64,000 bases of DNA, from NCBI GenBank assembly GCA_964400015.1, contig CAYNRR010000001.1, positions 113,275 through 177,274 on the forward strand. Reading direction: 5' to 3'. The translations under genes were made by a program, and so were the position numbers. The notes beneath the pieces were generated by a model. That model was given only the letters and a program-made list of their open reading frames with translations, searched no databases and was not told the DNA's origin. Shown here piece by piece: positions 45,701-59,797 of the stretch. This DNA is from an uncultured Eubacteriales bacterium (GTDB lineage: Bacteria; Bacillota; Clostridia; TANB77; UBA1234). How positions within the stretch are numbered: position 1 is the first letter of the stretch; every line of letters starts with the position of its first letter.

Positions 45701-48700
45701 GATGTTGCATCTTGTGTTGATATATATTCTATGTTATCTATTTCAGTCATATTGCTATATCCATAGAATAATTTTGCACCATATGCTGCTGTTATTCTAG
45801 CTGATGCTACTATGTATTGATCATAATATTGTGTTCCATCTTTTAGCTCTGATGGTACTATGTATGACATTACTGTCTTATGACCATTTACAAGTGATAC
45901 GTCCCATGAATCAACATAGTTTGTTGGTATTTTGTTAGTGAATATAACTTTTGTTACTTGTGAAGCGTTATATGTAGTTGCTTCATTTGCTCTATATGCA
46001 CCCAACATAGCTCCTGTTGCAGTTTCTCTCTCCATAAGTTCTGGCGCACCTTTTATAACGATTTCTCTTGTTATATTCATTACTTCTTTTGTCGTACCAT
46101 TTTCTGTGTAATTTAAAGTATATGTTATTGTTTGTGTGCATACTTCACTTGTGTCAATTGATGTTTTATCTACGGTTACTGAGTATCCGTATTTTGTATA
46201 ATTTGTTGCATTAGCACTATCAAATCCTGCAACTGTTGCTCCTTTTTCTGTGTAGCTTTCGCCTTTTATCTTGTATGTTGGATTATCTCCATTTAGTTCT
46301 AGTATTGTTCTTATTCTGTCTGAACCTAGTGCTGTTTCATAAGGAGTTGTTGCCTCATAATTTACTTTTGCAGTTTGGTTTGGCACATATAAGATTGCAT
46401 TTGTTGCTGTGTCAAATCCAACTGAAGCTGTTGTTGTCATCGACTCTGCTCTTTGTGCAATAATTCTGCTTAAAGAAGTATCGCCTGCAAACATATTTGC
46501 TCCAGATATTTTTGTAAAGTTTTCGCCTAGTACTATTGTTTCTAAGTTTGTGCAATTTTCAAACATTGATTTCATTGATGTAACATTTGTTGTATTAAAG
46601 TTTCTTAAATCTAATTCTTTTAGTCCTGTACATTCTGCAAATGTGTAATCTGTTTTTGTTATCTTTGAAGTATCGATATTAGACCAATCGAAAGTTTGCA
46701 TTGATTTAATATTTTTAAACATTCCATACATACTTGTAGCTCTTGATACGTCAACAATTTCAAAATTATTGATCGAAATACAATTTGTATAGTCTGCAAA
46801 TAACATAGACAATCCAAGTGGTGATATTAAAACTTTGTTATCTGAACCTATATATAAATTGTCATCTTTTACCCATGCTAATATGCTTTCATCTTGTGCC
46901 TCAGATACATCCCAGCTAGTAGCACCTGCTGGTACATTTGTATTTTCTACAAATGTAACTGATTTAATTTTGTCTGATGTAAATTGTGTATATCCAGCTT
47001 CTTCTGCACCTATTACATATGTAGCATATGGTTTTGATGTGGCATCTAACGAATAGTTTCTAATCATTAGATATGGTGCTAAGTATGCTGTTTCGTATTT
47101 TTTACCGTTTATTGTTTCTTCACTCTTATATACATCATATCCATCTGCAATCGATGTTATATCTCCACTATAGGCATTAGTTCTACCTTTTAATATACCA
47201 TCATAAAATCCAAAACCGTTCGGTGAAGTAATAGCATATGTTTTACCTATAATGCTTGGTGTAGTTGTACTAACTGTTTCATCATTTGAACCAATTACAA
47301 TTTTACCAGTTGATGGATTGTTAATTGCTTCTCCATATTCTGATATTAGAGTACCACCAGTAATATTTACTGTATTTGATGTTGAATAATTTCTGATTGC
47401 GTAACTGCCTTTTGATTTAAGCTCTCCACCAGATATGTTTACTATACCTGTTTGTTTTTCATCTGTTCTAATTGCATATCCGTTTGATTCAATTGTACCA
47501 CCACTAATATTTATTATGAATTCTTTAGTTTTATATAGATTACAATATATACCATTAGTTTCACTAATAATTTTTCCACCTGTTACATTAACTGTTGCCT
47601 GTTCTTCATCAATTATTATCGCAGCATTTCCATCGTTTAATGTGATTTGGCCTGCCTTAATATTTAGTATTCCAGCTTTTAAATGAAGCACACAGTTCAT
47701 ATTATTTATTAGTGTAACTTCTTCTATATTTAGAGTTCCATACGTCGAAATCAAATATTCTAAAGTTGTATTATCGTCTGCTAGTTTTATCACACCATCG
47801 CCGTTAATTGTCAATGTACCTAAATTAGCAATTCTTTTGCCTGTTAGTGTTATTGTATGTCCGTTTGTGTTGATTGTTATATCTTTTCCACTTTCAACTA
47901 TTAGTTCTGATGTATCTGTATTATCTGCTTCTACTTTAATTGTTCCTTTTGTTCCTGTGATTGATGCATAAGCTTCTGCTAATGTATCGAACATTACTCC
48001 ATCTACACTATAGTTTGATGCTGTTACTGTTACTTTGGCTGAATTTGATATTGTTCCTACAAGTTTTTCTTGTGTCATTTTTGCATTTGGATATGCACTA
48101 TTTGATAATACGCATCTGTATTCATAACCATTCATTGCTTGTGTTAGACCTGTTGTTGTAAATGTTGCCGTTGTTCCATTTGTTCCTTGTGCATCTGTTA
48201 CGTTTGTCCAAGTACCTGTAGCACTTGTTCTGTATTGCCATTGATAATTTATATCTGCTGGATTACCTGCTGTTGCAGTAACTGTGAATGTTGCTTTATG
48301 TCCTGCATTTACACTTACGTCTGTAGGTTGTGCATCTATCATTGGTGGATAATATATCTTTGTATTTTCAGCAGTATAGTGAGTTCCACTTACAAATTTA
48401 TCTGCAACATCTTTTGACATTGTATATATTACAGAGTTTGCTTGAAGATTTGTAAATGCTTCTGTTCCTATTTCTATAATTGATGTTGATTTCAAGTATA
48501 CTTCTGCTATATTTTTTGCTCCTGCATATGCGTAATCTGCTATGTTTTCAACATTTGCATTTATTATATGAGTTGCTGTGCCATTTCCTGCTGGATATGA
48601 TACAACTGTTTTTCCGTCATATGTTAGCAATGCTATGTTTTCTACTTTGTAATTTGTATTACCTGTTGCTATTGAGAAGCCTGTAATGTTTGATCCCATA

Positions 48701-51700
48701 AATGGATTTGCTCCCATGCTTGCAACTTGTACAGGTATTGTTAAAATACCTGTCATGTTTTTAGTATCTGCTAATGCAAAATCTCCTATTGCTTTTAGTT
48801 GTGTTGGTAATGTAATTGTTGTAATTGCAGTACCTCTAAAAGCATTGTTTCCTATGCTTGTTACGGTTGAGTCAATACTAATTTCAGTAATTTTTGAAGT
48901 ATATGAATTCCATGGTGTATCTGCTGTTGTAAAGTCTTTCATTTCTCCCATACCTGTTATTAGTAATTGGTATTTTGTATTGTCTTCGTTGTTTATTAAG
49001 TATGCCCAAACATTATCTACTCCTGCATTTTTTGAAATATTCCATGCTTGTTTTAATGATGCAACTTCGTAGTGCATTCCATCAATTTCTTCGTGATAAT
49101 TGTATATTGCTGTGTTGTTTGGTGTCACTACGTTTGTTTTATCTACTGCATTTATTCCACCTTTTATTAAACCATCATAGAAAACTATATTTGAGCCATC
49201 AGTATATACCCCATAACCTTCACCAATGATTGTTACTAAGTTATCGTTTATAATTCCATCATCTGTACCAATAGTTAATATGGCGTTATCAGATATATAT
49301 ATAGCTGATGTGTATGTTGCTCCACCGTTATCTACGGCACTAATAGTTCCACCATTTACATTTAAAGTACCACCATTTACATGCATATATAGAGCAATTG
49401 TATAAAGACCATCTTCCATAGTTGTATCACGGTTTATTGCAATAGTTCCACCATTTACATTTATTGTGCCACCATAATCTAATATTGTACTTTGTATGAT
49501 TCCAACATTTTCAGCACTTACTGTACTTGTTAACGTACCTGAATTTATATTTGTAACAGCTCCATAATTATTAAATAAAATTTCATACTCTCCCGTTCTT
49601 TCACTTACATTTAATTCTATTGTCGCTGTTTCTATATTTAGTTCTCTGTCATTTTGAATTAAGTTAATGTCGTTTCCAACAAGTGATCCAGCACCAGTTA
49701 TATTAAGTACGCCGTAGTTTACTATTCCTCTTTCATTTTTTGTTAGAGCGTATGTACTTAAATCTAATGTAATATTTTTGTTTGTTGGAATTATTGCATT
49801 TACAACATCTGTGCAATCTCTCATAACTTCAACTGTACCTGTTGTAGTAATTGATTCGATTGCAGATTCTAATGTTGAGTAATATTTTTCTCCAACACGA
49901 TAATTTCCTAAAGCAATTGCTATAGTTCTTGTTTGTGTATCTACTACTGTTGTTTCATTTGCTTTATTTGTATATTTCAATGTGTAAGTAATTGTTTTGT
50001 CACCTAGTGTGCTTGTATCTATTGGTAATCCTGCTGTTTCAACTGTGTAACCTAAATCGTTGTAATTTGTAGCGTTTGTGCTATCCCAATCAAATACTGT
50101 TACTCCAGCGTCTACATATTCAGTACCTGCTTCCATTTTTGCTGGGTTATCCCCTAATAAGCTCATGAAAGGCTTAATCTTTTCTGCACCTAGCAATGAA
50201 ATATATGTGCTGTTTGCTTCATACAATGCTTCATCAGAAGTCGTTGGCACGTAAAGAATTGCTTTTTTATCAGATAAGCTGTTATCTGTTGCAATTTGCA
50301 TTAAATCGCTTTCACTCCTTACACTACGTAAAGAAATTATTCTTTCAAGTTTTGTGTTGTTAAGGAAAATGTATTTACCATCAAGTCTAGTAAATTTTTC
50401 ACCTAGTATTACAGTTCTTAAATTTGTACAGTTAGATATTAAAGCAGTTGTATCTGTAAGTGCTTTGCCTGTATCTGCCCACTTATACGCACCTGTAACG
50501 CCATCTAATGCAGAAGTGTCAAAGCTCGATAAATCTAAGAATGTTAAACTTCTACAGTTGTCAAACATTGATGCCATACACTTAGCAGACGAAGTATCGA
50601 AACTTGTAACATTTAATTCCGTTAGAGAATAGCATCCCTTGAACATATGATCAAAATTCGTAACTTTAGATGTATTAAACATAGATACATCTACGCTCTT
50701 TAGTGATTGACAATCTGCAAACATTTCGGCCATATTTGTTATTTTACTTGTATCGAATTGATTGCCTAAATCTAACTCTGTTAAAGCTTTACAGTTATAG
50801 AAAATATGATACATGTTTGTTACATTGCTTGTATTGAACTGAGTTCCCAAATTTAATGTTTCTATCGATGTACAACTTGCGAACATATAACTCATATCTG
50901 TTACTTTACTTGTATCAAATTTTTCTCCCAAATCTATTGCTGACAATAATGTACATCCTCTGAACATAAGTCTTGTAGTAGTAAGTGCTCTTGTGTCAAA
51001 TTGTTTTCCTAAATCTAATGTTGTTAATGAGCTACAATTTTGTAACATGTTACTCATATTCTTTACTTTTATTGTATTAAAGTTTTCACCTAAATTTAAT
51101 TTTGTTAATGAACCACAAGAATAAAACATAGCAGACATACTTGTTACATTGCTTGTATCAAAGTTCGTACCTAAGTTTAATTCTTTTAGTGCACTACAAC
51201 CTGAAAACATTGATTCCATCAATGTTACATTGCTTGTATCAAATCTAGATATGTCTAATGTCTTTAATTTTTTACAATTTCTAAACATTCCAAACATGTT
51301 AGTTGCATTGTTTGTTGTTAAATATTCTATGTTTTTTATCTCTGTCAAATTTGAATATCCATCAAATAACATACACGTATATTTAGCATTTATTGTATTA
51401 GTTGCAACAAAATATTGTGCATAGCATTGTGTATCGCCACTCATTGTTGATGGTACTAAGTATGATGTTACTGTATCTGGTGCACTTGTTGAAGAAACAT
51501 CCCAACTAACAGTAGCATTTGATGCTGCTGTGTCTGTGAATATTACTTTTGTTATAAGGTCAGGTGTATATTCTGTTTTTCCTGCTCTATATGCACCTAT
51601 TACATATTTGTTTGTAATGTATCCATCAATTCCTTCTCTTTCCATCAACTCTATTTTTACTTCTGCATATACACTTTCTGTTTCTATTGGTTGTACTACG

Positions 51701-53541
51701 CTTAGTGCTGCTACGTCTGATGTTTTTTTGTAATCGGCAATTGATGAATTCCATATTACGCATCTTAATTCAAATCCATCTGCACAGTCACCTGATGTCA
51801 TTTTGCTTGTATCCATTGTTAATTTTGCTGTGTTATATCCTGTTGCAATTGATGATGTTACATCTTCCCAGTAGATGTTATCTCCTGATTTGTATTGCCA
51901 TTGGTATTTGTTTGCACCTTTTGCTGTTATTTCAAAAGTTGCTTTTTCGCCATAGTTTATTTTTTGTGTTTCTGGTTGCTTTGTATATTCTAATTCAAAT
52001 TTTGCTGCTTTTATTGAAATGTCGCCTTCTGCTACGGATACAGTAACTATGTCTGATTTTACCGCATCGTGTTCTTTGTAATAATTGTTTCCTACTAAGC
52101 AACGATATTGATAATCTGTGTTACTATATAATCTTGTTTTTGTTGTGAATGTTGACTTCTTTAGTGGTTTTTCTGTTGTTGAATTTGATGGTGTTGATGT
52201 GCTTGAACTACCTTGAGTTGATGTTGCATCTTTCCAGTAGTCATTTTCACTTTCTCTGTATTGCCATGTAAATGTTAAGTTTGTTCCCATTGCCACTACG
52301 CTAAACTTAGCAGTTCCACTTTGAACTTTTACTTTAGTTAAATCTAAAGTTGGTTGTTCCATGATTATTGGAATTTCTCCTACAGATATACTTGTGGCTG
52401 GTGTTAATGATAGTGCCGCTATATCTGATGAAACTCTTTGTTCTTCTGTAAAATATGTGTTACCAACTAAACATCTATATGTGTATTCTTCCATTACTGG
52501 ATATGTTGATACGCTAAGTGTTGCTGATGTTGAACTTGAGCTTACATTTTTCCAATATGTATTTTCGTTTTCTCTATATTGCCATTGGTAAGTTGTTGCA
52601 TTTTCTGCTACTACTTTGAATGTAGCAGTATTTCCTACTATTACTTTTTGTGTTGCTGGTTGTGTTGTTATGCTTGGTGCAAGCGCTGTTGTAACTGTTA
52701 TTGCTATATCTTCATCAACACTTGAGATATTGCATACTTTACCTCTAACATTTCCTAGTGTTGTGATTGCACTATCTCCTGATGCAAGTGTTGATTCTAT
52801 GCTTGCTATACCGTAATTGTTGTTTGGAACAATATTAAAGTTTAATGCTGTTCCTTCTGCTACTGTTGTGTTTCCTACTATTTCTTCTCCGTTTGTATCA
52901 AACACTTTGTAGTTTTCGCCGTCAAATGTTATTTTTCTTGTATTTACTGTGATGATTATATATGTAGAGAAACTGCCTGTTGTAAATTCTATTTCTTCTG
53001 CTGTTAATTTGCTTATTGGCAATATCTCATAGTTTTCGTTGTTCATAATATGCATAAGTGCATATGTTTTTGAATCGTCTATGTCAAGGTTCATGTCTAA
53101 GTTTGAAAGTTTTACTTTTACTTTTTGCCCATACGCAGTTGGTTGATATTTTAGGTTTTCATTTGTTACATCGATATCGAATGCGTCTACTACTTGTTCT
53201 GGTAAAATATCTTTTTTATAGCTTTGTGCTAATGATACTGCGTCTTCTTTATTTAGTTTAGCAACTTCTACTTGCGAATTTTTGATTAGTACACCTGTGA
53301 CTTGAACTTTTTCATTTGTAGAAGTTTGTTCCGATTCTATCTCATCATATTCTACGTAGTTTGAGAAAGGAAGCTTTTCACTACACAAGTCACAAATCAT
53401 ATCGATGTCACTATCGATATGTTCGCAAGATATTAACTTATTTTTTTCAGACTTTCTTATAAAGCCTGCTCCTATTCCAGCCGTGGCTACCAGCACCACT
53501 ATGCTCATTAAAATTAAGATAATCTTGTTCTTTTTCATCAT
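33709..53541 (-). CDS. Giant (6,610 aa) multidomain surface protein: Ig-like domains, DUF285/BspA-type repeats, LRR_5 (BspA-like) repeats and beta-helix regions
   Basis: Single uninterrupted ORF. Its N-terminal ~290 aa are near-identical to giant gene 1. It contains Ig-like domains with a QWQYR motif, three DUF285 arrays (..FDTSNVT.M..MF..C.SL..L), several arrays of FxxxxxLxxIxLPxxLxxIGxxAF (LRR_5), parallel beta-helix-like Gly/Asn-rich repeats, and SbsA-type Ig domains. Its start codon is only 28 bp from the DGR RT stop codon. Confidence 0.8.
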   Translation of the reverse strand: MMKKNKIILILMSIVVLVATAGIGAGFIRKSEKNKLISCEHIDSDIDMICDLCSEKLPFSNYVEYDEIESEQTSTNEKVQVTGVLIKNSQVEVAKLNKEDAVSLAQSYKKDILPEQVVDAFDIDVTNENLKYQPTAYGQKVKVKLSNLDMNLDIDDSKTYALMHIMNNENYEILPISKLTAEEIEFTTGSFSTYIIITVNTRKITFDGENYKVFDTNGEEIVGNTTVAEGTALNFNIVPNNNYGIASIESTLASGDSAITTLGNVRGKVCNISSVDEDIAITVTTALAPSITTQPATQKVIVGNTATFKVVAENATTYQWQYRENENTYWKNVSSSSTSATLSVSTYPVMEEYTYRCLVGNTYFTEEQRVSSDIAALSLTPATSISVGEIPIIMEQPTLDLTKVKVQSGTAKFSVVAMGTNLTFTWQYRESENDYWKDATSTQGSSSTSTPSNSTTEKPLKKSTFTTKTRLYSNTDYQYRCLVGNNYYKEHDAVKSDIVTVSVAEGDISIKAAKFELEYTKQPETQKINYGEKATFEITAKGANKYQWQYKSGDNIYWEDVTSSIATGYNTAKLTMDTSKMTSGDCADGFELRCVIWNSSIADYKKTSDVAALSVVQPIETESVYAEVKIELMEREGIDGYITNKYVIGAYRAGKTEYTPDLITKVIFTDTAASNATVSWDVSSTSAPDTVTSYLVPSTMSGDTQCYAQYFVATNTINAKYTCMLFDGYSNLTEIKNIEYLTTNNATNMFGMFRNCKKLKTLDISRFDTSNVTLMESMFSGCSALKELNLGTNFDTSNVTSMSAMFYSCGSLTKLNLGENFNTIKVKNMSNMLQNCSSLTTLDLGKQFDTRALTTTRLMFRGCTLLSAIDLGEKFDTSKVTDMSYMFASCTSIETLNLGTQFNTSNVTNMYHIFYNCKALTELDLGNQFDTSKITNMAEMFADCQSLKSVDVSMFNTSKVTNFDHMFKGCYSLTELNVTSFDTSSAKCMASMFDNCRSLTFLDLSSFDTSALDGVTGAYKWADTGKALTDTTALISNCTNLRTVILGEKFTRLDGKYIFLNNTKLERIISLRSVRSESDLMQIATDNSLSDKKAILYVPTTSDEALYEANSTYISLLGAEKIKPFMSLLGDNPAKMEAGTEYVDAGVTVFDWDSTNATNYNDLGYTVETAGLPIDTSTLGDKTITYTLKYTNKANETTVVDTQTRTIAIALGNYRVGEKYYSTLESAIESITTTGTVEVMRDCTDVVNAIIPTNKNITLDLSTYALTKNERGIVNYGVLNITGAGSLVGNDINLIQNDRELNIETATIELNVSERTGEYEILFNNYGAVTNINSGTLTSTVSAENVGIIQSTILDYGGTINVNGGTIAINRDTTMEDGLYTIALYMHVNGGTLNVNGGTISAVDNGGATYTSAIYISDNAILTIGTDDGIINDNLVTIIGEGYGVYTDGSNIVFYDGLIKGGINAVDKTNVVTPNNTAIYNYHEEIDGMHYEVASLKQAWNISKNAGVDNVWAYLINNEDNTKYQLLITGMGEMKDFTTADTPWNSYTSKITEISIDSTVTSIGNNAFRGTAITTITLPTQLKAIGDFALADTKNMTGILTIPVQVASMGANPFMGSNITGFSIATGNTNYKVENIALLTYDGKTVVSYPAGNGTATHIINANVENIADYAYAGAKNIAEVYLKSTSIIEIGTEAFTNLQANSVIYTMSKDVADKFVSGTHYTAENTKIYYPPMIDAQPTDVSVNAGHKATFTVTATAGNPADINYQWQYRTSATGTWTNVTDAQGTNGTTATFTTTGLTQAMNGYEYRCVLSNSAYPNAKMTQEKLVGTISNSAKVTVTASNYSVDGVMFDTLAEAYASITGTKGTIKVEADNTDTSELIVESGKDITINTNGHTITLTGKRIANLGTLTINGDGVIKLADDNTTLEYLISTYGTLNIEEVTLINNMNCVLHLKAGILNIKAGQITLNDGNAAIIIDEEQATVNVTGGKIISETNGIYCNLYKTKEFIINISGGTIESNGYAIRTDEKQTGIVNISGGELKSKGSYAIRNYSTSNTVNITGGTLISEYGEAINNPSTGKIVIGSNDETVSTTTPSIIGKTYAITSPNGFGFYDGILKGRTNAYSGDITSIADGYDVYKSEETINGKKYETAYLAPYLMIRNYSLDATSKPYATYVIGAEEAGYTQFTSDKIKSVTFVENTNVPAGATSWDVSEAQDESILAWVKDDNLYIGSDNKVLISPLGLSMLFADYTNCISINNFEIVDVSRATSMYGMFKNIKSMQTFDWSNIDTSKITKTDYTFAECTGLKELDLRNFNTTNVTSMKSMFENCTNLETIVLGENFTKISGANMFAGDTSLSRIIAQRAESMTTTASVGFDTATNAILYVPNQTAKVNYEATTPYETALGSDRIRTILELNGDNPTYKIKGESYTEKGATVAGFDSANATNYTKYGYSVTVDKTSIDTSEVCTQTITYTLNYTENGTTKEVMNITREIVIKGAPELMERETATGAMLGAYRANEATTYNASQVTKVIFTNKIPTNYVDSWDVSLVNGHKTVMSYIVPSELKDGTQYYDQYIVASARITAAYGAKLFYGYSNMTEIDNIEYISTQDATSFESMFSGCTSLEELDLRSFETSNVTVMAEMFNNCSSLLSLDVTNFNTSEVTAMYGMFTNCSSLTKLDLSSFDTSNAGEPQQLRGRGPLFSMFQNCTNLETLVLGEKFNTLNGYYMFNGCENLQKIISNRSVETSSDMMAINSVGIGVRNTPATLYVSSQTAEALYEANSSYINQFTADRIKSLLSLIGDERVKVNLGGSYTEYGYKIADEMPETLEDENIGDYRVTITGVEDIDFSTMGVYDVVYTLEYKNPYDENATYTTFMSLTRKVQVGGIEATVKVEGKNEYDSTLTAKITSSTIPEENYTYQWYICDIKSTNGGTPIEGATNKTYTVGKGLVGKYIYVEVTGNYGEYEEAKFYDLADEANNVSDTIAKKVVTLPKDDNSLVYNGEEQEFIPDGYNEKYMEVTGNTGTDAGTYKAEYILTDPDDCEWDKGEEITEEVIWTIAKKSIAAIWDGPFTFTYNGTEQGPEVHTESVVDGEVVTLTKYIKVDAGNYIAKTRIASVTGGRANANNYVLINETASFKINKATPEFVVTPTQLNITQGNTGILNYTSNVESTITVESADTSVATAGNIDLTGKTIEIISKGTGSTIITVTLDESINYSAATATVVVGTLSANYTDGTNYYETLASAFAGAKDGAIIIQLNEVTENTVAVVESSKTLTLKLNGNNSTIKVNDFITVKGNLTIEGLGTISQSTTDGTSTSSLIVVDGGTLTLKGAVEVNGSNTAITSKGIVNVSENVKITGITGIVNKGKLTFGVAGDVTQRDLVEVIATQTAIENVGEFYWYDGQITANAATIYSGVEPILEESIAICSEINGNKETRYVVRDTEAPVIENIISQTDWVKNSQTLEIIARDNIKVTGYALTETNEMPALDSNVWNTANTFTVTENKSYFVWVKDAAGNVVSKEFVAKWICLEIWDTTGESGTDTRAILKLDGTLLFEVVNGTIGYIKDYTVSNAPWSNDTRVTSVVVSEGIAKIGEYGLSNMIVADSITLPRSLTEIAESALYRTNNYSSINISGNTHFTIDELSIYDISKTTLYSYSKKNTEIDFTIPDTVKTLVTGLFYENGTLVEIRTNKNITSVGEDAFEGFKADVYYYTSCETMKEYALANSEEANFIAIDDVKPVIESFVINNDDISTISQDVTLTIIAKDDVKVSNVFISEQYYTDEEIRNKANSEWISYNGTEYPYTVSSGTGTKTVYVWVKDSSGNISSSVNDSIFYGDIEVKLLNQAEIVQYVDTTGKDYYKYIESVQGGYTSKSNVTVNVTGSVNHKVSGEYEIKYSVMLNDIEMQTLTRTVNVIENSWTGAKGTTQDEFTYVIHTNGKYAKITGYTGEFTRVLRIPASVTLDGTEYKVIDVESIGANRIVETVELPDTLINIGNRAFAEFNELENVDIPDAVMSIDENAFASAGLMNGIFVKLGSNFREIKAEAFKNARISDIDFGSMVKYLGDNAFANVRVPENFVLKLPASLDALGLDTFESTKIYDITVEEGNNKFIIDDDGISLLTNDEEMLVLYPIASDFEEYDIPQGVTTIGRKAFKDAEKLKIVNVSSSANTVNEYAFEGATNLEKVNYSELLTNIGEYAFLNSGVTSFAFNRNLNNISKGAFENSKLTDVSIHSKITSIKAEAFKGITTLKSVVIEGKPSISISAFENCTSLKTAVFTNNTGIVTIADKTSIPDSTTIYVPTSMEVIYESDSIYSQYENCTEKIQPILELIGNQEIVWTINNEYVEDGVKLAGETLKTSANSSTVKGLELVIDGTVDPSKSLRNTIVYIAKYNGVEVDRIERIVDIQDNIAPVIESVTTDSDWVSPYQTFVVKATDNIAVTAYIITTENTVPSVDDSRWQTSEKLKVDANQIWYIFAKDAAGNISTRYQVISTWVAAGKWDVSKNQDNSVHGIITLDGKTLIIKGNGETKNYAEKETPWYEDYKDTVTTITVEDGVTSIGDYLLGYMPNVLTITLPNTLEKVIDGAFAYTNNFENIELGNNTHLVYENGTLYNADKTELYVHTTKHTNDYEIPSNVQKICAAAFANSIYISRLDLTNVKEIQSYAFNGCTHFANQYIPKTLNKIGEKVFAGTRGPIYYYSSCDAMVEYVKAYGSETEFIEIDDIKPVIKNFVINNNEVSTDNENVTLNIDATDNKAISKIIIETTLSENITSGDPRWTDYAGEKEVAYTLTGGNGIKILYVWVMDTSGNICEQYATDTIILGANDFAFEHNDTIVQYVDRTGKGYYEFNEEVQGNYSIETEGVTVTVNANIDVTTVGEKQIVYSLDYYGTPAGEFYKTVDVIEDSWGTTIFSENGFDFVKHTDKNYAKIVKYSGSTNVVFPEIVTDGGIAYRVIEIESLDENPVVDVNTTTVELPTTIIHVGKNAFVNCTKLESINIEYNVLTIEENAFKNTGLKALDTNKNVRVIKEGAFENAHITTLNNSQLLKSIETRAFRNALDTERLTILASIDNIAEGAFAGSLIDKIVLDDENVTSKFKVHEDSLLLDTTTGTLIQYATGKGTISLECPSIGIKKIGEGAFMNATNIQKLSIKDNYTMVGREAFRNTGLTIFELNSNIQAIPEYLFADCTSLSTVILENARSIKANAFENTSALKQLVIFTSADYVCDIDNVSLLNENTKVYVLEKEMYKESASWTAIADRIYSIFRLNGDENITIEAGTEYIDSGVYAIDVLFASTSTYPDIDNITVEINSNVNTAKLGNQTVNYILKLNGNARTELSRNVKVQDTTPPVIEKIITLDVAQAQREKFEIIASDNHKIAGYAITQTDTQPILDSDVWSTSNVVYATQNGEWFVWVKDEAGNVAMETVKAENICAAIWDVGVVPNKVFASISFDNTIIFEGEGAVRYFAKEDIPWKDYLEKVNKIEVREGVTELQKYTLADMTNVGEISLPKSLTKVETSTFAKTNNFYEITFPNGTETFIYDGYTLYSMDKSILYVHSNRDQNITYTIDENVKTIGEYAFANNSNIVTITTTSNPTLLEGAFNNNNTLEKINGEIGGTRIESYVFENCSKLSGIEMSKDVTYIGSYAFSNCNMITEIEMILCTELKTLDHHAFANLKNLQTLKVYRTIANILADEENVRNVFEKMGSNFPENAKVYYYEGCNAMEEYAKYYPDINVDFIMIDEIGPRLMSLKVTNRENGTYSAGTVLEITAIMSENFLTIKGTIPELSIEFGSGSVIKLQPNGVDGRNIKYTYTITKDDLGQLECVSFDGELYDELDNKSEFKGPKTIDGNIYARSGVLLESDFEENKYFPRLSDATEYITSTGKLTMLLNEDAMKVATFKANTLVTLDINGKKVSLNCDQSEDTRLIKNNGTLTVIDSGAGELSTISTGLDACAIENEGTLKLVSGVIRAQTLKTGLAYGVLNKGEVNITGGTISAVNTEGTSYGMYNEGTLKMENGTITSSTIEGKTYALYVANGNVNVTGGQITSRLLSGNKGTTTGVYIEKGTYVSGKNDESISKESPIIYSTKDGLRNVGGKLEFYDGVIEGEAYRSLYTNEVKVVPGYALIKKLVGDREKAYLDFDVSKPIIELKNLTPDWTNDKVTIQAKFIDEESGVQNAYYGETEVTLVNNMITVEVEQNGTYTFKAIDFAGNTAEESITITNIDKESPTFENLSYTAMANQKEVTLTVTVKDNASGVRGYLLSKYEVEPTKWKELNKIMTKVELDISVTSNGKYYLYAIDDAGNIGKYNSVIDITDVDASAPVIKSLEIVDNDRGFANSSVVMIKVDAEDDTGVKEILISNKLLTNNQVLDSEEWVPYTEDVIWTLPIGDGEKTIYVWVKDKANRISKTSTATTKLLAQYIGNNGENSTSFKFLSKDANYNYGKELTADDLYIKVKDTTGAETYTGDYGEGIVLAKTPVVYGPIQEGSQAMSGRYYYVTAQNIAGEGIVYLCFRDTVEVDKAGNKIATAKLELETDVVVELNKPVITVSSTTVTVTDADNHSMNVIKIDGKTIKLSNGSITKSDLKAKYDIELVSGTKLETIDKCGNTAVYTIN

Positions 53542-53569
53542 TAGTTAGTCATCCTTTCAGTTTAAAAGT

Positions 53570-54517
53570 TTAAAACCTTTCACTAAGTAAAATATTGTAG
53601 TTTAAAACTGTGTTGCACATTCCGTTTAAAGCTATCTTTCCTATTTGGTAGAGATATAATCTCCTTTTTATTTTTCTTTTTGCCGTTCTGTATTTACTGT
53701 ATCTTCCATACGAATTTCTTCCCAGGAAAATGAAATTGTCGGTGTCTTTATAAATTCTTGTTTTTTGATTTAATACTAATTTTTCTTTTTCTAAAAATTT
53801 TTCAATTTTTATCAAGCATTCTTTTAAATATTCTTTCGATTGATGCATTACTAATGCATCATCTTGATACCTAATGTAATACTTTATTTTTAGCTCTTCT
53901 TTTATATAATGATCTAAATCATTAAGATAAAAAATTGCTAATATTTGAGATGTCATATTGCCTATCCCTAATCCATGTTCTTCATTATCTATAATTCTAT
54001 AGATAATATCTAAAGCATCTTTGTCTTTTATTTTTTTACTAACTTTATCTTTTAGTATTTCTTTGTCGATACTGAAAAAGAATTTTCTTATATCGAGTTT
54101 TAAAATATAGTAATTACCATATTTATTTTTGCAAATTTTTGAATAGTTTCTAAAATATCTAAGCCCTGCACCCGTTCCTTTATTTGGTCTACTTGCAACG
54201 TTTGTTTCTATAAGTGACGGTACAAGTGCCGGATATAGTATGTATCTGCTCACTAAATGATTTACTAATTTATCTTCCATACTTTGGCTTTCTATTCTTC
54301 TTTCTTTTGGTTCATAGATAGTAAATACATATGGCTTGCTAGGTACGTATTTTTTGCTTTTTAATATTTCGTACACTCTAAAAATATTTCTACATTTGTG
54401 TTCTTTATATCTTGCAACTTTTCTTTTGTTTTTTGTATTTCTGCAAATTTCATCGTAAACTGTCATTATATTTTCTAAATTATATATATCTTTATACAGA
54501 TTACTTTTTCTTTTCAT
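53570..54517 (-). CDS. Diversity-generating retroelement reverse transcriptase
   Basis: RT motifs including YQDD and the DGR-specific GIGNMTSQILAIFYLNDLDHYIKEE (I/LGxxxSQ). 315 aa. GGAGG RBS. Confidence 0.85.
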   Translation of the reverse strand: MKRKSNLYKDIYNLENIMTVYDEICRNTKNKRKVARYKEHKCRNIFRVYEILKSKKYVPSKPYVFTIYEPKERRIESQSMEDKLVNHLVSRYILYPALVPSLIETNVASRPNKGTGAGLRYFRNYSKICKNKYGNYYILKLDIRKFFFSIDKEILKDKVSKKIKDKDALDIIYRIIDNEEHGLGIGNMTSQILAIFYLNDLDHYIKEELKIKYYIRYQDDALVMHQSKEYLKECLIKIEKFLEKEKLVLNQKTRIYKDTDNFIFLGRNSYGRYSKYRTAKRKIKRRLYLYQIGKIALNGMCNTVLNYNILLSERF

Positions 54518-54731
54518 CTCGCCTCCGAAAAAGTAGCACAGGTGAAATTTTATTTCACCTTTTGCACCACTTAAAAATAGTACTAGTATTTACTCCCTTT
54601 CGCTTGTGCTACTAACAAATAAACACATCTATTTTTTATTCTTACTTAAATTGCTTTAAGTAATGGATAACAGTTTGTTTCTAAGATTCTCGTATATCAC
54701 CTTTAGTAGATATACCCACATTTGATAGAAG

Positions 54732-54830
54732 CTACAGGGCGCACCCCATTCGTGTTGTTGTTGTTGTTGTTCACGTTGCCGTTGTTATTCACGTACCACA
54801 AGTTGTTAGAGTTATAAGCAGAGGCTAGCC
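54732..54830 (-). repeat. DGR template repeat (TR), 99 bp
   Basis: 99 bp aligned to the VR at 55810..55908 with 14 mismatches. On the coding (minus) strand the TR carries runs of AAC codons (six consecutive) that align with varied codons in the VR. Confidence 0.85.
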
Positions 54831-54860
54831 TTTTCAACCGTACCCTATGTAATACCCTTT

Positions 54861-55235
54861 TTAAGGTTTATTACCAATTTCTTTTTTGTATGAATTTATC
54901 CATCCTGCATAGTACCTAACGATATTATCTAGTGACTCTCCAAATCTAAAATATCTTTTTGCATTTATGATTTCTTTGTCATAACATTGATTGATTAAAA
55001 AATCTAAAAGTTTTATGTGTGCAACTCCTTTTTCTTGCAAATCTCTTCGTTTATTTTCATCAATTGTTATATTGGCTTCATATGTTATGTACAACAAATC
55101 GTATGCACAGTCTTTTATTTTTCTTTTTAATTCAATTTCTTTGTTTGGGAAATTGACTAAATATTTATCTATTGCTGTAATTAAATCTTTTATCATTTCT
55201 ATTATTTTAAATTTTTCAGTTGGCTTATAATTCAT
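54861..55235 (-). CDS. avd: DGR accessory variability determinant (Avd; four-helix-bundle family)
   Basis: About 124 aa, helical, with a basic patch. The position between target/VR and TR-RT is canonical. Similar to the 23S rRNA intervening-sequence four-helix-bundle protein family. Confidence 0.65.
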   Translation of the reverse strand: MNYKPTEKFKIIEMIKDLITAIDKYLVNFPNKEIELKRKIKDCAYDLLYITYEANITIDENKRRDLQEKGVAHIKLLDFLINQCYDKEIINAKRYFRFGESLDNIVRYYAGWINSYKKEIGNKP

Positions 55236-55665
55236 CAAATATTATCTCCTCTATATTTTGAATTTTCTTTTTTATTGTTGGAGAATTTATATTTTCAATT
55301 AAATAATTGTATATTGCATTTATTCTGTTTTTTATTGTTACATACTTATATGCTTTTTCATAAAGTGAAGTATATTCGTTTTTATCTTTATATTTCATTT
55401 CATGTGATACTTCATAATTTTGTGATTTTACTGTTACGATATAGCTTACTTTGTTATCTTCTAATAATTTTAAGTTTTTATTTAATCCTGCTTTTGGGAA
55501 ACCACATGTATTGTAACTATTTTCTAAGGTTTTAATTTGATACCCACATAAATATGATAGTATGTACGAATCTTTGCCATACACGTGATAAAATGCACCG
55601 ATTTGTATCAATATTATTGTTTCAGGATTTATTTGTTTCATTGTTTTTATCATGGTATCTTTCAT
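55225..55665 (-). CDS. MutS-domain-I-like (mismatch-binding-domain-like) small protein encoded inside the DGR cassette
   Basis: 146 aa. NPETIILIQIGAFYHVYGKDSYIL...NTCGFPKAGLNKNLKLLEDNKVSYIVTVKSQ aligns with MutS domain I (E. coli [21 protein letters not shown]...[29 protein letters not shown]). The phenylalanine of the GxFxE motif is conserved, but the glutamate is replaced by histidine. Confidence 0.5.
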   Translation of the reverse strand: MKDTMIKTMKQINPETIILIQIGAFYHVYGKDSYILSYLCGYQIKTLENSYNTCGFPKAGLNKNLKLLEDNKVSYIVTVKSQNYEVSHEMKYKDKNEYTSLYEKAYKYVTIKNRINAIYNYLIENINSPTIKKKIQNIEEIIFDEL

Positions 55666-55738
55666 TTTATTCCCCCCATTTTTTGTTTTTTCTCCGTAAG
55701 CAGACCTTAGGCCTGCTCACGGACATACTGTTCAAGTT

Positions 55739-57172
55739 TTATTCCATATTTATATTCCATGCACCTATCATGTCTGTGCCTTCGGCTAGGACCTCAGACT
55801 TTAGAGAAACTACAGGGCGCACCCCATTCGCGTAGTAGCTGTTGCTGTACACGTAGCCGCTGCTATCCACGCACCACAAGTCGCGAGAGTTATAAGCAGA
55901 GGCTAGCCAGTAGTATGCGTAGTTGCCACTATTAGTAGCAGGTACAGCTAATAAGTCTTGATACTTAGCTGCTGTTACAGATGTACCAGATTTGGTGGTT
56001 GTATTCCCTGTTGGATCGTATACTTTATCCAAATCTTCTTTTGTCATTGCACGTACTTTTAAAGTACCTGCCTTTTTTTCTCCTGTAACAGTAGTTGTAG
56101 CTCCAGAATATTGTGTACTAGTATATGTAACTGTTGTATCTTGTGTATATGTTGCTGTATATTTATTAGTAAAAACTTCTGTTAATGTTTGAAAAGGATT
56201 AAATCCTGTTGTTCTATAGGTATTATCATCTGATGAAGAAAACGCTGTTGTTAAAAAATTTATAGCTAAATTTTTTATACTTGTAGTTGGATAACTATAA
56301 TGACGATAAGTTAAAGGTACACCAGCACTTACCAGGTTCACCGTTCCTGGTGCAGGATTTCCGTCTATATCTACATCTTTACTTAGAACTCTCCATCCTC
56401 TTCTTTTAGCAATGTAACTACTACCACCATTACTTGATACATTATCATAATAAACCGGATAATTTACGTAGTCCCCTATTTCTACTACTTCTGAAAGTTG
56501 TGGCAATGCACCTAAACTTGTTGTCCATACTGCATAAAGCGTTGCTGATGTTTCTGTTCCTATTTGTACTGCAGCAGGAATTATATCTCCTTGTCTGTAG
56601 CTTGGTGTTGTTGCGTTTTTGTCTGTGCTCCAACCTAAAAAGTAGTATCCCTCTCTTGTAGGTGTTTGACTTGTTACTACAAATGGTGCGCCGTGAACTC
56701 TTGTTGTTGCAAGACCTGTAGGCATTGTTGCATCTGTTGCATTTACATCGTATGTTACTGTTTGAGATACTGAGCTGTCATATATTATTGAAGTATTTCC
56801 GTTTGCATCTTTAAGTGCAAGGTATAGAGTATTTGTACCACTTAGGTTTGGAAGTGTCATTTCAATAACCTTGTTTGTTTCATAATCTTCCCAAGCTGTA
56901 ATTTTTTCAGTATTAGAAATTGGGCTTGTGCTTATGTAGTACTTAATCTCGTTATCTGCACACATATTGTCTGCTGCAAAAATTTGCACTTGAACTTTTG
57001 CTCTGTCTACGTAATTTACATTATTTACTTCTGTCGCTCCTATTATTTGAAGTCTGCCCCATGGAGCAACTACATCATTGTCGTAATAAAGGTTTTCTGC
57101 AAAAGCTATACTACTCATTCCAAGTATTAGCCCTGCTCCACAGCATAACTTTTTTAAATATTTTTTATTCAT
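55739..57172 (-). CDS. DGR target protein: secreted, with a Flg_new repeat and a C-terminal DUF1566-like C-type-lectin-fold domain carrying the VR
   Basis: Signal peptide MNKKYLKKLCCGAGLILGMSSIAFA, GYYFLGWSTDKN...LYAVW (Listeria/Bacteroides repeat), and C-terminal ...YYWLASAYNSRDLWCVDSSGYVYSNSYYANGVRPVVSL, in which the diversified codons lie. Confidence 0.8.
   Translation of the reverse strand: MNKKYLKKLCCGAGLILGMSSIAFAENLYYDNDVVAPWGRLQIIGATEVNNVNYVDRAKVQVQIFAADNMCADNEIKYYISTSPISNTEKITAWEDYETNKVIEMTLPNLSGTNTLYLALKDANGNTSIIYDSSVSQTVTYDVNATDATMPTGLATTRVHGAPFVVTSQTPTREGYYFLGWSTDKNATTPSYRQGDIIPAAVQIGTETSATLYAVWTTSLGALPQLSEVVEIGDYVNYPVYYDNVSSNGGSSYIAKRRGWRVLSKDVDIDGNPAPGTVNLVSAGVPLTYRHYSYPTTSIKNLAINFLTTAFSSSDDNTYRTTGFNPFQTLTEVFTNKYTATYTQDTTVTYTSTQYSGATTTVTGEKKAGTLKVRAMTKEDLDKVYDPTGNTTTKSGTSVTAAKYQDLLAVPATNSGNYAYYWLASAYNSRDLWCVDSSGYVYSNSYYANGVRPVVSLKSEVLAEGTDMIGAWNINME
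55810..55908 (-). repeat. DGR variable repeat (VR) inside the 3' end of the target gene
   Basis: See TR. The IMH-like GC-rich end GGGGTGCGCCCTGTAG is on the minus strand. Confidence 0.85.
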
Positions 57173-57192
57173 TAAAATTCTCCTCTCTTTAA

Positions 57193-57741
57193 CTAGTTGT
57201 CGTTATTTGCAATTTCTATTTTTACATCGCTGGCATAAGTAATATCTTCAAGCACATATGTTTTAAACTTGCTACTCTCTAGCCCTGCAAGGTCGGTTAA
57301 AATTCCACCAAAAACATCTTGTACTTCGCCACTTTCATTTAGTGCTTTAATACTCAAGCTTTCTGCTTTTGAATATTCTTCTGATGTATTTTTTACATCT
57401 GCTGTAAAAGTGCATTTGCCACTATCTATCTTGCCGATTTTCATGTTTGAAAACTCAACATTTCCAAGCTTTTGCACGCCAGAAACATTTACATACTCCA
57501 TTACTGTATCGTTGTTATCTAGTCTTCCTTGTATGCTACCCTCATACTCTGGAATGTTTTCATAGTCCTTATCTACAACATCGTCATCTCCGATTTCATC
57601 ACCAGAGCTAGTTTCTATTTTCTGCTCTTTTTTCCTCATCAAATCGTTAGAAGAACTTGAAAGAGTAAAAGCTTTTATAAACAGCAGTATTAACCCCATC
57701 ATTGCAGCCAGCAAACAAATGTAACCAATGTTTTTTTTCAT
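57193..57741 (-). CDS. Membrane-anchored hypothetical protein immediately upstream of, and likely co-transcribed with, the DGR target
   Basis: AAGGAG RBS then MKKNIGYICLLAAMMGLILLFI. The gap to the target gene start is 21 bp. Confidence 0.45.
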   Translation of the reverse strand: MKKNIGYICLLAAMMGLILLFIKAFTLSSSSNDLMRKKEQKIETSSGDEIGDDDVVDKDYENIPEYEGSIQGRLDNNDTVMEYVNVSGVQKLGNVEFSNMKIGKIDSGKCTFTADVKNTSEEYSKAESLSIKALNESGEVQDVFGGILTDLAGLESSKFKTYVLEDITYASDVKIEIANNDN

Positions 57742-58117
57742 TCTTCTCACTCCTTTCATCCAGAATAAATCATCTTGGCTTGATTATAGCTTTTTCGCCA
57801 CACCAATTCAACACGCGTATACGCGCGAAATATAATTATAGGTAGGGTTTGCGAGCTTCAGCAACTTGTTTTTACTTTACGGAAGATAGTTTCACGCAAA
57901 TTATTTGTGTTGCTATTTTACGTTTTATTAAGTTTAACTTACTTTTTTATTACACACCTGTTACAAGAGCAACAAACTGCGTGGCTGAAAGTCCTTTAAA
58001 ATATGGTTTCCGTAAGTGAAGAAGTATAAAAAAATAGAAAATGTACAGGAACTATCCTGCACATTTTCTATTTTTAGTTTTTATTACTTTTTAGGACTAT
58101 TAGTTTGTTTCATATTT

Positions 58118-59317
58118 TTATACACTCTTATCTAATAACCATTCCAACACATTTTGAATTATAATACCTTCTTCGTTATATACTGGAATATGATCCATGG
58201 TTAATATGGTTTTGGTGTAATTATCAGGTATCTTTTGCAATGAATTTAACTCTCGTGCTAATATTCTATTTTCATTATCTCTTAAAGTTTCACAAACTTG
58301 GATATATTGTTTTCCTTTGCTATTTATAGCTACAAAGTCAACTTCTAGGTTATCAACTTTTCCAATAAAAACTTCATAACCTCGTCTTAATAATTCCAAG
58401 TAAACAACGTTTTCCAATATATGACCACTATCGCCTGGCTTTCTTCCCAACATAAAATATCTTAGCCCCAGGTCTGAAACGTAGTATTTTTCACCTGTTT
58501 TCAAATATTGTTTTCCTTTTATATCATACCTTGTTGCTTTATATAAGAAAAATGACTCTATAAAACCTTCAAGATATCTTTCAACAGTTCTAGAGTTTAT
58601 GGTTCTACCGTCACTTGTTAAAGTGTTTGCAATAGTATTTGCAGAAGTCAAATTGCCAATATTGTCTAACGCAAAATTTGCAACACTTTTTAACATTGAT
58701 TCACTAGTTATATTCTTTCTTATCATTACATCTTTTATAATTACATCGTTATATAATCCACCTAAATATTTTCCGATTTCATCTTCTTCTAACTCAGTTG
58801 TGTAAGGGAAACTACCCAATGAAACATAATTGCTATAAATCTTTTCTAAGTTATCGGTATTCATTGTACTGCAATATTCTTTAAAAGATAACGGCAACAT
58901 TTTAATTTCTATATATCTTCCAGATAAAAGTGTAGCAAGCTCAGATGACAACAAATTAGCGTTAGATCCAGTTATATATAAATCAATGTTTTTATTTATA
59001 TATAAACTATCAATTGCTTTTTGGAAGTTTTCGATTTGTTGAACTTCATCTATAAACACATAATTCTTTTTATTTTCTACTAGGTTATCAACTACATAAG
59101 TATATAAATCCATATATGTTTTTATAAAGTTATATCGTAAATCTTCCAAATTTATGCTTATAATCTGCTTTTCATCGATGCCATTTTCGAGTAGATATTT
59201 TCTAAACATCTCTAAAATAGTACTTTTACCACATCTCTTAATTCCCGTAACGACTTTTATTAAATCTTTATCTTTAAATTTCTTTAATTCATTTATGTAT
59301 TCAGTTCTTTCTATCAT
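58118..59317 (-). CDS. AAA-family ATPase (AAA_14 + DUF4143 architecture)
   Basis: Walker A GIKRCGKST, a Walker B-like VFIDEVQ, and a C-terminal DUF4143-like region. Confidence 0.7.
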   Translation of the reverse strand: MIERTEYINELKKFKDKDLIKVVTGIKRCGKSTILEMFRKYLLENGIDEKQIISINLEDLRYNFIKTYMDLYTYVVDNLVENKKNYVFIDEVQQIENFQKAIDSLYINKNIDLYITGSNANLLSSELATLLSGRYIEIKMLPLSFKEYCSTMNTDNLEKIYSNYVSLGSFPYTTELEEDEIGKYLGGLYNDVIIKDVMIRKNITSESMLKSVANFALDNIGNLTSANTIANTLTSDGRTINSRTVERYLEGFIESFFLYKATRYDIKGKQYLKTGEKYYVSDLGLRYFMLGRKPGDSGHILENVVYLELLRRGYEVFIGKVDNLEVDFVAINSKGKQYIQVCETLRDNENRILARELNSLQKIPDNYTKTILTMDHIPVYNEEGIIIQNVLEWLLDKSV

Positions 59318-59342
59318 AATAAATTTATCCTTTTTCTTCTTT

Positions 59343-59779: not shown

Positions 59780-59797
59780 AAAAGCGTGGGGATATAA

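Follow-up and report, generated by a model that had tools for sequence, protein, structure and literature searches.

The locus lies on the minus strand of a 64-kb stretch of DNA (the window, meaning the whole stretch that was analysed) from an uncultured low-G+C gut Clostridia bacterium. Along that strand the order is small TM protein gene, target gene, msl, avd, TR and reverse transcriptase (RT) gene, and the ORF positions confirm the arrangement given in an initial annotation of this DNA (target, a small ORF, avd, TR, RT). The four ORFs of the cassette (target, msl, avd and RT) are all intact and the catalytic motifs are present. The features of the locus are collected in Table 1.

Table 1 Features of the retroelement locus and of the surface genes on either side of it
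Feature	Position in window	Strand	Description
Giant surface protein	33709..53541	-	6610 aa; DUF285, BspA-type LRR and Ig-like domains; starts 28 bp past RT stop
DGR reverse transcriptase	53570..54517	-	315 aa, pI 9.7; RVT_1 2e-16
Structured spacer RNA	54573..54730	-	Between TR and RT gene; H1-H6 and 3' arm of duplex
TR	54732..54830	-	99 nt, non-coding, 33 adenines; between avd and RT gene
TR-bracketing RNA duplex, 5' arm	54836..54846	-	11 bp; partner 54664-54675
Avd accessory protein	54861..55238	-	124-125 aa, pI 8.9; overlaps msl end
Msl (MutS-like) accessory protein	55225..55665	-	146 aa, pI 8.8; MutS domain I only
Hairpin past target stop	55693..55723	-	14-bp stem, 3-nt loop; 86 nt 3' of VR
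Variable (target) protein	55739..57172	-	477 aa; VR in C-terminal domain
IMH-like 3' boundary	55790..55825	-	G+C-rich run GGGGTGCGCCC (55815-55825), common to VR and TR
VR	55810..55908	-	99 bp, target codons 422-454; 14/14 TR mismatches at TR adenines
Small acidic protein	57193..57759	-	188 aa, pI 4.6; N-terminal hydrophobic segment; heads three-gene module
Promoter-like site	57783..57811	-	TTGAAT-17-TATAAT; upstream of first gene of co-oriented block

The VR and the TR, both read on the minus strand, were compared without gaps over 99 aligned bases, which was the check proposed with the initial annotation. As claimed there, 14 mismatches were detected and each falls at a TR adenine (nine A>G, four A>T and one A>C, TR base first). 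With 33 A among the 99 nt of the TR, the hypergeometric probability that all 14 would fall on A by chance is 2.2e-8. The first mismatch at a base other than adenine (TR C, VR T) is immediately 3' of the repeats, which indicates that their 99-bp boundaries are correct. The VR is in frame within the target ORF, and 70 nt precede the stop. Read in the frame of the VR, the TR consists in part of 12 AAC and two AAT codons, including the previously described run of six consecutive AAC codons (codons 442-447). The residues listed earlier for the VR required a correction; the Asn codons are indeed diversified, but 13 codons rather than 14 are altered, since N430>R takes two substitutions and the listed N (codon 444) is unchanged. 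No substitution of a TR adenine can generate a stop codon, and the diversity ceiling is approximately 2e18 variants over 17 codons on the lectin-fold surface. Among 54 target homologues the hypervariable columns are the TR-adenine codons, with a VR entropy of 2.95 bits at TR-Asn positions versus 1.35 in the remaining C-terminus. An adenine-masked TR search of the 64 kb (full length with up to 6 non-A mismatches, 45-nt pieces with up to 4) returned no VR besides the TR and VR themselves. The giant 6610-aa ORF was considered as a second DGR target and was rejected, as it contains no VR.

The RT contains IGNMTSQ at residues 185-191 and YQDD at residues 217-220, which align with IGxxxSQ and YxDD respectively, and the attribution of the DGR-specific I/LGxxxSQ motif to this enzyme was thereby verified. 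Among solved structures the enzyme is closest to the RT of the Bordetella phage DGR (bRT; E 1e-27). Its relatives in the genome collection share at most 65% identity and come mostly from uncultured Clostridia MAGs from animal guts. Adenine-specific TR/VR pairs were found at 12 of 22 related RT loci (gut Clostridia/Bacilli and other MAGs), in addition to the locus of a sister strain (L001).

Avd was matched by Pfam bAvd (4.8e-7) and NCBIfam DivGenRetAVD (NF033474; 2e-8), both below the curated cut-offs, and by the PHROG 'Avd protein of DGR' (4.9e-12), so that three libraries recognise it in all. Related loci have avd in the corresponding place, and a comparison of Avd with PDB sequences gave nothing meaningful. 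The small ORF of the initial annotation is Msl, the accessory protein of "Architecture D" DGRs, which are the Msl-containing DGRs of Wu et al. 2018 (PMC5758913). Msl matches Pfam MutS_I at 3e-8 (34.3 bits against a cut-off of 20.6), PF01624 is present in nearly all of its 45 homologues, and its length falls inside the published range of 112-283 aa (PMC5758913). The G-x-F-Y motif, which supplies the mismatch-stacking Phe of MutS, never varies, whereas F-x-E has another residue in place of its Glu, His in the window protein. The Msl profile found nothing at E<=1 among PDB sequences, so that the evidence for kinship with MutS is the Pfam match together with an alignment to the MutS proteins of E. 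coli and Taq. A profile search for an HRDC gene gave no match in the cassette. A small MutS-domain-I protein encoded beside avd in a cassette of this composition identifies the DGR as Msl-type, and the element is a genuine, intact and clean example of this previously described type.

The target protein begins with a signal-peptide-like segment (MNKKYLKKLCCGAGLILGMSSIAFA, then E) and a beta-sandwich domain, followed by a Flg_new repeat (residues ~138-217) and a DUF6273 C-type-lectin-fold domain (~220-477). Modeling of the C-terminal domain produced a confident C-type-lectin fold whose structural matches include DGR variable proteins, which puts the VR, 3'-terminal in the target gene, on a C-type-lectin scaffold. 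In the earlier description of this protein as secreted, with Flg_new and DUF1566-like domains, the Flg_new repeat, the signal-peptide-like segment and the lectin fold held, but the DUF1566 assignment did not. Membership of DUF1566 (Lcl C-terminal domain) was rejected, as there is no sequence-level profile match and the domain is DUF6273 instead. Considering these properties, we are highly confident that the locus is a chromosomal DGR of the Msl-containing type, and that what it varies is the ligand-binding face of a secreted protein with a C-type-lectin fold.

The target is part of a conserved three-gene surface module composed of the small TM protein, the DUF6273 lectin and the giant BspA/DUF285 protein. 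The small acidic protein has no Pfam or PHROG match, but in L001 and in three further loci (L026, L027 and L028) a homologue of it immediately precedes the target homologue. In the latter three loci, homologues of the N-terminal 1000 aa of the giant protein lie directly downstream of the target homologues, with no DGR cassette in between. The cassette of the window is inserted into this conserved module, and the variable protein could consequently be a ligand-binding partner that an adhesin of several thousand residues can exchange, a putative role that we put forward with considerable reserve.

RNAalifold analysis of 7 loci identified a duplex bracketing the TR, in which 93.5% of the cells are paired compared with 29-52% when the partner was slid, and in which four pairs are compensatory. 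In the spacer, the nested stem-loops H1 and H2 lie directly 3' of the TR and are followed by H3, an A-rich run and H4-H6; H2 (54692-54715) is a candidate Avd-binding stem-loop. Covariation in the spacer extends over 45 pairs, with 96.3% of cells paired (40-59% in slid controls) and two-sided changes at 24 pairs (2-7 in controls). An Rfam search of positions 53000-58200 returned nothing relevant and no family matching the spacer RNA. Compared by description, the TR duplex and the 3' stem-loops fit the published DGR RNA elements, which include a distal duplex around the TR (bioRxiv 10.1101/2023.10.23.563531).

Beyond the G+C-rich run shared by the two repeats, the flanks are only partly similar from position 55809 (VR TTTCTCTAAAGTCTGAGG versus TR CTTCTATCAAATGTGGG, read from the alignments). 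By analogy to the IMH/IMH* of the Bordetella phage DGR, this IMH-like boundary may direct homing. The hairpin past the target stop is conserved, with a change confined to the loop in L001 and three compensatory pair changes in another locus (L014), and may correspond to the VR-proximal hairpin/cruciform element. A part in homing is uncertain because the hairpin is located 86 nt from the VR and because a shorter core of it follows the target stop in L026, a locus without an adjacent DGR. An intrinsic terminator was rejected as an explanation for the hairpin, given that no T-run follows it on either strand. The promoter-like site is a consensus match only, and such sites are no commoner in the region than in shuffles; judged by its sequence, it may be where transcription starts. 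The strong terminator of the preceding gene is at 58030-58075.

Comparison with the one sister strain that provides a VR bears on whether the DGR still operates. The target protein of the window is absent from the records as an exact sequence, and the sister locus was reached through an 89%-identical cluster member of that protein. L001 has ~92% nucleotide identity to the window locus over 5.7 kb. The TRs of the two strains differ at 1 of 99 nt, whereas their VRs differ at 20 of 99 positions, 18 of these at TR adenine positions; the TR was conserved while the VR varied. The sole TR polymorphism (position 44, T/C) is matched in each strain by the strain's own VR, which argues for recent retrohoming. 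Two Logan contigs with near-identical RTs supplied no further VR alleles of the species, since both stop short of the VR, ~270 nt before the RT and in or beside the TR.

An alternative reading is that the cassette formerly wrote the VR and is now inactive, leaving the VR frozen in this strain. Activity of the DGR is inferred here, and static versions of the target protein do exist, since some homologues in other species (e.g. P0028) are identical on 6-7 contigs with no DGR cassette within 10 kb. In addition, 22 of the 23 mismatches between the L001 VR and its own TR are at adenines, the exception (position 36, T>C) meaning either that time has elapsed since the last homing event or that the RT erred. 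The window VR, however, shows zero non-adenine differences from its TR over 99 nt despite the ~8% divergence of the whole locus from L001, and conservation of TR and spacer from one strain to the other is ~98-99%, indicating purifying selection. Together with the four intact ORFs and the strain-matched allele at position 44, these results render an inactive cassette unlikely. VR turnover between strains and the TR allele carried over into each strain's own VR support mutagenic retrohoming indirectly, and the DGR is probably active.

A second alternative is that the DGR belongs to a phage or prophage, diversifies a receptor-binding protein and has a merely apparent cellular character. DUF6273 domains do serve as phage DGR targets (tentaclins; PMC10743442), and the RT matches the PHROG RT family at 3.9e-79. 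The closest phage RTs, though, are at most 38% identical (that of nd12, among them, at 36%), and a search of 50,697 phage records gave nothing matching Msl. The absence of phage structural genes noted in the initial annotation extends over the 64 kb, where the neighbours are instead MetRS, TrpRS, TatD, a MurA-like EPSP-fold enzyme, RlmH, MinC, a PBP, SLH proteins and giant adhesins. No tRNA or integrase was found nearby, and L001 shares the same chromosomal neighbours. A phage origin is accordingly very improbable, and the housekeeping neighbours support the original view of a cellular DGR diversifying a surface protein.

The remaining alternative, in which a group II intron, retron or defence RT happens to lie beside a direct repeat derived by chance or recombination, is hardly credible: toxin-antitoxin and Abi genes are nearby and the top NCBIfam matches of the RT are of these kinds, but they score far under their cut-offs (TIGR04416, 89 bits against 300; Drt3a, 56 against 200; retron St85, 48 against 235), the Bordetella phage bRT (8ub7, E 1e-27) leads the other PDB RTs by 15 orders of magnitude (7e-13 or weaker for group II intron enzymes and for a chain whose deposition names it a retron-type RT), adenine-only mismatches (P ~2e-8), Avd, a frameless TR and a lectin-fold target are foreign to those systems, and base-specific differences cannot be produced by duplication or gene conversion.

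For the Msl-containing DGR favoured here, a mechanism can be proposed. A minus-strand transcript would cover the small TM protein gene, target, msl, avd, TR and RT. The RNA from the 3' end of avd through the TR and spacer would fold into the long-range TR-bracketing duplex with the stem-loops just 3' of it and would be bound by an RT-Avd complex. The RT would then copy the TR into cDNA, misincorporating opposite adenines only, and this cDNA would take the place of its 99-bp homologue in the target gene, the VR. The transfer is expected to owe its direction to the G+C-rich 3' end common to both repeats and to the IMH-like flank that only the VR has, possibly helped by the post-stop hairpin. Msl consists of a mismatch-binding MutS domain standing alone, and its probable substrate is the cDNA:VR heteroduplex with its many mismatches. 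The outcome would be a repertoire reaching the ceiling given above.

Msl may act as a DGR-encoded mismatch-repair decoy, an idea we offer only tentatively. The putative decoy would have retained the base-stacking Phe while losing the catalytic-signalling Glu and the ATPase and clamp domains. If this reading is true, Msl coats the cDNA:VR heteroduplex and host MutS cannot restore the parental VR. Host MutS has been reported to suppress DGR mutagenesis 5-10-fold in Bacteroides (bioRxiv 10.1101/2024.11.15.621889).

Msl-containing DGRs include that of Legionella pneumophila and the Bacteroides Bfr, Bth and Bun DGRs (bioRxiv 10.1101/2024.11.15.621889). The window element resembles these in carrying target, msl, avd, TR and RT on one strand with no HRDC gene, in a small Msl limited to MutS domain I and always alongside Avd, and in a chromosomal location with a C-type-lectin-fold surface protein as target. 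It differs in that its target is a secreted Flg_new and DUF6273 protein rather than a lipoprotein (Legionella) or type V pilus tip (Bacteroides), that its host belongs to the Clostridia, and that the cassette is embedded in a conserved module that also encodes a giant BspA/DUF285 protein. Resemblance to the BPP-1 DGR (Mtd, Avd, TR, bRT) is seen in the presence of Avd between target and TR, adenine-specific AAC mutagenesis, a C-terminal VR carried by a C-type-lectin fold, and a 3' boundary rich in G+C with a candidate hairpin element beyond the VR. The RNAs are alike in their TR-bracketing duplex and in the stem-loops 3' of the TR. BPP-1, in contrast, is phage-borne, targets a tail-fibre tip, lacks Msl, has its hairpin far closer to the VR and shows low sequence identity to the window element. 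The phage tentaclins/DUF6273 targets (nd4/nd12 and Faecalibacterium prophages; PMC10743442, PMC11792537) share DUF6273 and a VR on a beta-hairpin surface, but they sit in phage genomes and their VR can be near the N-terminus. Treponema denticola TvpA and Thermus TaqVP belong, unlike the window target, to the FGE-sulfatase/DUF1566-type domain family, and HRDC takes the place of Msl in the Treponema DGR (PMC5758913).

The locus alone leaves existing knowledge of DGRs unchanged. Its intact cassette, perfect adenine pattern, RNA covariation and a sister strain showing TR-to-VR transfer nevertheless make it a good model, which could address the function of Msl and the ligand recognised by a DUF6273 lectin that has a giant BspA-type adhesin as its partner. 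DGRs are abundant in gut Firmicutes and are, to our knowledge, the sole known natural targeted protein hypermutation systems in prokaryotes; we know of few well-described cellular DGRs with a non-phage target. The msl gene is linked to avd in most of the related RT loci, and some relatives within the clade carry a second Msl-like ORF, either beside the RT or fused to it.

The diversity-generating retroelement (DGR) of the window is real, and the initial annotation, which had described it as diversifying a surface protein, was essentially right. Ungapped alignment of the variable region (VR) with the template region (TR) on the minus strand bore out the reported 99-bp repeat pair with 14 mismatches, all of them at TR adenines (nine A>G, four A>T and one A>C). 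The TR contains 33 adenines, and the probability that 14 randomly placed mismatches would all fall on adenine is 2.2e-8. Because the first non-adenine mismatch lies directly 3' of the 99 bp, the boundaries initially assigned to both repeats are exact. The VR lies in frame within the 477-codon target gene, and the TR read in that frame holds 12 AAC and two AAT codons. The six consecutive codons listed originally are present, while the 14 listed codon changes reduce to 13, N430>R being the product of two substitutions and codon 444 being the same in both repeats. No adenine substitution in the TR can create a stop codon, and the repertoire computed from the TR adenines amounts to approximately 7e19 DNA variants and 2e18 protein variants. 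No further VR was found in the whole 64 kb window.

Coordinates of the DGR components and of associated features (window positions unless a related locus is named)
Feature	Position (strand)	Remarks
VR	55810-55908 (-)	codons 422-454 of target
TR	54732-54830 (-)	
RT	53570-54517 (-)	315 aa; matches RVT_1
Avd	54861-55238 (-)	pI 8.9 (basic); PHROG 'Avd protein of DGR' 4.9e-12
Msl	55225-55665 (-)	MutS domain I, Pfam 3e-8, above cut-off
Module gene 1	57193-57759 (-)	small TM protein, 188 aa
Module gene 2 (target)	55739-57172 (-)	DUF6273 lectin-fold
Module gene 3	33709-53541 (-)	giant DUF285/BspA LRR, 6610 aa
Module, L026	9255-17143	
Module, L028	9440-21665	
Hairpin	55693-55723	past target stop codon
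TR-bracketing duplex	54836-54846 with 54664-54675	6 nt upstream and 57 nt downstream of TR
Second Msl-like ORF, L004	4036-4518	
Second Msl-like ORF, L005	4-426	
Second Msl-like ORF, L006	6945-7364	
Second Msl-like ORF, L017	7123-7545	
Second Msl-like ORF, L018	1536-1838	
Second Msl-like ORF, L023	1265-1669	
Other giant surface protein	4107-15182 (-)	3691 aa
AAA_14/DUF4143 ATPase	58118-59317 (-)	
Terminator	58030-58075	20-bp stem
ATPase homologue, L011	10866-12053	
Phd/YefM antitoxin	59343-59597	
AbiEii upstream partner ORF	59798-60550	
AbiEii nucleotidyltransferase toxin	60544-61503	
ToxN-family toxin	20174-20674 (-)	Pfam 3.5e-33
Tandem repeat	20752-20847	40-nt unit x2.4
SLH-domain protein, SAF/RcpC-like protein and unannotated 546-aa ORF	28490-29758 (-), 26863-28503 (-), 29755-30465 (-)	

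The closest solved structure to the RT is that of the Bordetella phage DGR (bRT, 8ub7; E 1e-27), followed at 7e-13 and weaker by a chain deposited as a retron-type RT and then by group II intron RTs. GIPIGSLTSQ of bRT lines up with GLGIGNMTSQ of the window RT, and the DGR-specific I/LGxxxSQ motif that had been read from the sequence is present as IGNMTSQ (residues 185-191), with YQDD at residues 217-220. Scores against the NCBIfam group II, retron and Drt models were all far under cut-off. Avd matched both Pfam bAvd and NCBIfam DivGenRetAVD under their curated cut-offs. The small ORF noted beside avd is also present, and its MutS domain I match identifies it as Msl, an accessory protein known from 16 DGRs in which avd is always present and which defines Architecture D (Wu et al., PMC5758913); Msl was subsequently noted in Bacteroides DGRs (bioRxiv 10.1101/2024.11.15.621889). 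The window DGR is one of the Msl-type or Architecture D elements, a class already described, and the msl-avd pair also occurs in most of the related RT loci. When Msl was aligned with 23 homologues and with the MutS proteins of E. coli and Taq, G-x-F-Y proved invariant; it reads G-A-F-Y in the window protein, and its Phe (Phe25) corresponds to the Phe that stacks on mismatches in the GxFxE motif of MutS. The Glu of GxFxE is not conserved among Msl proteins and is His in the window protein. In Bacteroides, the MutS of the host cuts DGR mutagenesis 5-10-fold (bioRxiv 10.1101/2024.11.15.621889), which makes the question of Msl relevant, and the locus could serve as a clean model for Msl function and for the biology of a giant adhesin and its variable lectin partner. 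Other DGRs have already been reconstituted in E. coli. Several related loci carry, besides the msl-avd pair, a second and more divergent Msl-like ORF that adjoins the RT gene or is apparently fused to it, an arrangement reminiscent of the RTs with MutS_I-like C-terminal extensions to which Wu et al. 2018 (PMC5758913) refer.

GGGGTGCGCCC is a G+C-rich end common to VR and TR, past which their flanks are just partly alike; by sequence, this 3' boundary appears to be the IMH/IMH* pattern of the Bordetella phage DGR. The hairpin behind the target gene has a 14-bp stem and a 3-nt loop and is maintained in the related locus L014 by three compensatory changes. Neither strand has a T-run after it, and a shorter core of the hairpin also occurs at a locus without an adjacent DGR. 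The 214-nt spacer between TR and RT has a conserved structure of 45 pairs, with 96% of cells paired across seven loci against 40-59% in slid-partner controls, and changes on both sides in 24 pairs against 2-7 in the controls. An 11-bp duplex brackets the TR, its downstream arm being a conserved block; 93.5% of its cells are paired, compared with 29-52% in slid controls. As only seven related sequences were used, the covariation evidence for these RNA elements is moderate. The spacer stem-loops, one of which lies at 54692-54715, and the bracketing duplex correspond to features of 207 Avd-containing DGRs, which have a stem-loop just 3' of the TR and a distal duplex around it (bioRxiv 10.1101/2023.10.23.563531). 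No Rfam family matched the spacer/TR RNA.

A Logan contig from another sample (L001) holds the same locus of a sister strain in the same chromosomal context, approximately 92% identical over 5.7 kb. The two TRs are identical except at position 44 (T/C). Between the two VRs there are 20 differences in 99 positions, 18 of them at TR adenines. Position 44 is one of the two remaining differences, and each VR has the allele of its own TR, indicating TR-to-VR sequence transfer since the TRs diverged. Non-adenine differences between VR and TR number zero in the window and one in the sister strain. From these comparisons we infer that the DGR is probably still active in this strain. Adenine-specific TR/VR pairs were also found in 12 of 22 related RT loci (gut and other MAGs), in addition to the sister strain. 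In short-read assemblies of this species, contigs end at the TR (L024 1-269; L025 1-274), which may be due to the repeat itself or to VR heterogeneity within a sample. An Msl homologue (P0126) occurs on two contigs, the longer of which (1063 bp) is roughly the VR-to-TR distance and probably breaks at both repeats.

The target begins with a signal-peptide-like segment, as read from its sequence (residues 1-26 have low pLDDT), followed by a beta-sandwich and a Flg_new repeat. Structural matches included the N-terminal domain of the Thomasclavelia ramosa IgA peptidase (score 11.8), named DUF6273 (PMC12402451), the Legionella Lcl C-terminal domain (6.0), a Bacteroides fimbrial protein (5.5), dozens of C-type lectins (about 3-4) and the DGR variable proteins TvpA (4.1) and TaqVP (3.1). 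The target domain, too, belongs to a class already described: it is a DUF6273 domain of C-type-lectin fold, and DUF6273 is on record as a C-type-lectin-like target in phage DGRs (PMC10743442). Among 54 target homologues, entropy was 2.95 bits at columns matching TR-adenine codons and 1.35 bits elsewhere in the C-terminus, and L432, W433, G439, G450 and R452-L457 form a near-invariant scaffold.

Target homologues in other species (L026/L027 and L028) have a 188-aa-protein homologue before them and a giant DUF285/BspA homologue directly after them, with no DGR cassette or TR within 10 kb. The window has its msl-avd-TR-RT cassette between the second and third genes, and the cassette-free arrangements therefore indicate that the cassette is embedded in a conserved surface module of three genes. 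In L026, the VR-equivalent contains AGC, GGC and CGC codons and is G+C-rich within an A+T-rich genome. Such codons are typical of a DGR-written VR and suggest, speculatively, that this region too was written from a TR, the cassette perhaps now acting in trans or lost. The two giant surface proteins of the window, which carry DUF285, BspA-type LRR and bacterial Ig-like domains, cover almost half of it.

The DGR is a cellular element, as originally proposed from the lack of phage structural genes nearby. Genes of the window include those for MetRS, TrpRS, TatD, an EPSP-synthase-fold enzyme, RlmH, MgtC, MinC, a PBP, SLH-domain proteins and toxin-antitoxin components. Phage structural genes, an integrase and tRNAs are all absent, and the G+C content of the window is uniform at approximately 31%. 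The nearest phage RTs share at most 38% identity with the window RT, and Msl had no match among 50,697 phage records.

Directly upstream of the DGR block lies an AAA_14/DUF4143 ATPase gene with a strong terminator; a homologue is found near the DGR of L011, a related locus. A stretch of approximately 2.4 kb (about 59320-61762) containing the AbiEii and Phd genes has no counterpart in the sister strain and is an indel of defence or toxin-antitoxin genes adjoining the DGR block. The ToxN-family gene and the tandem repeats directly upstream of it look like a type III (ToxIN-like) toxin-antitoxin system with RNA antitoxin repeats. The cluster of SLH-domain and SAF/RcpC-like proteins suggests an S-layer-bearing Firmicute, possibly with a pilus-assembly remnant.
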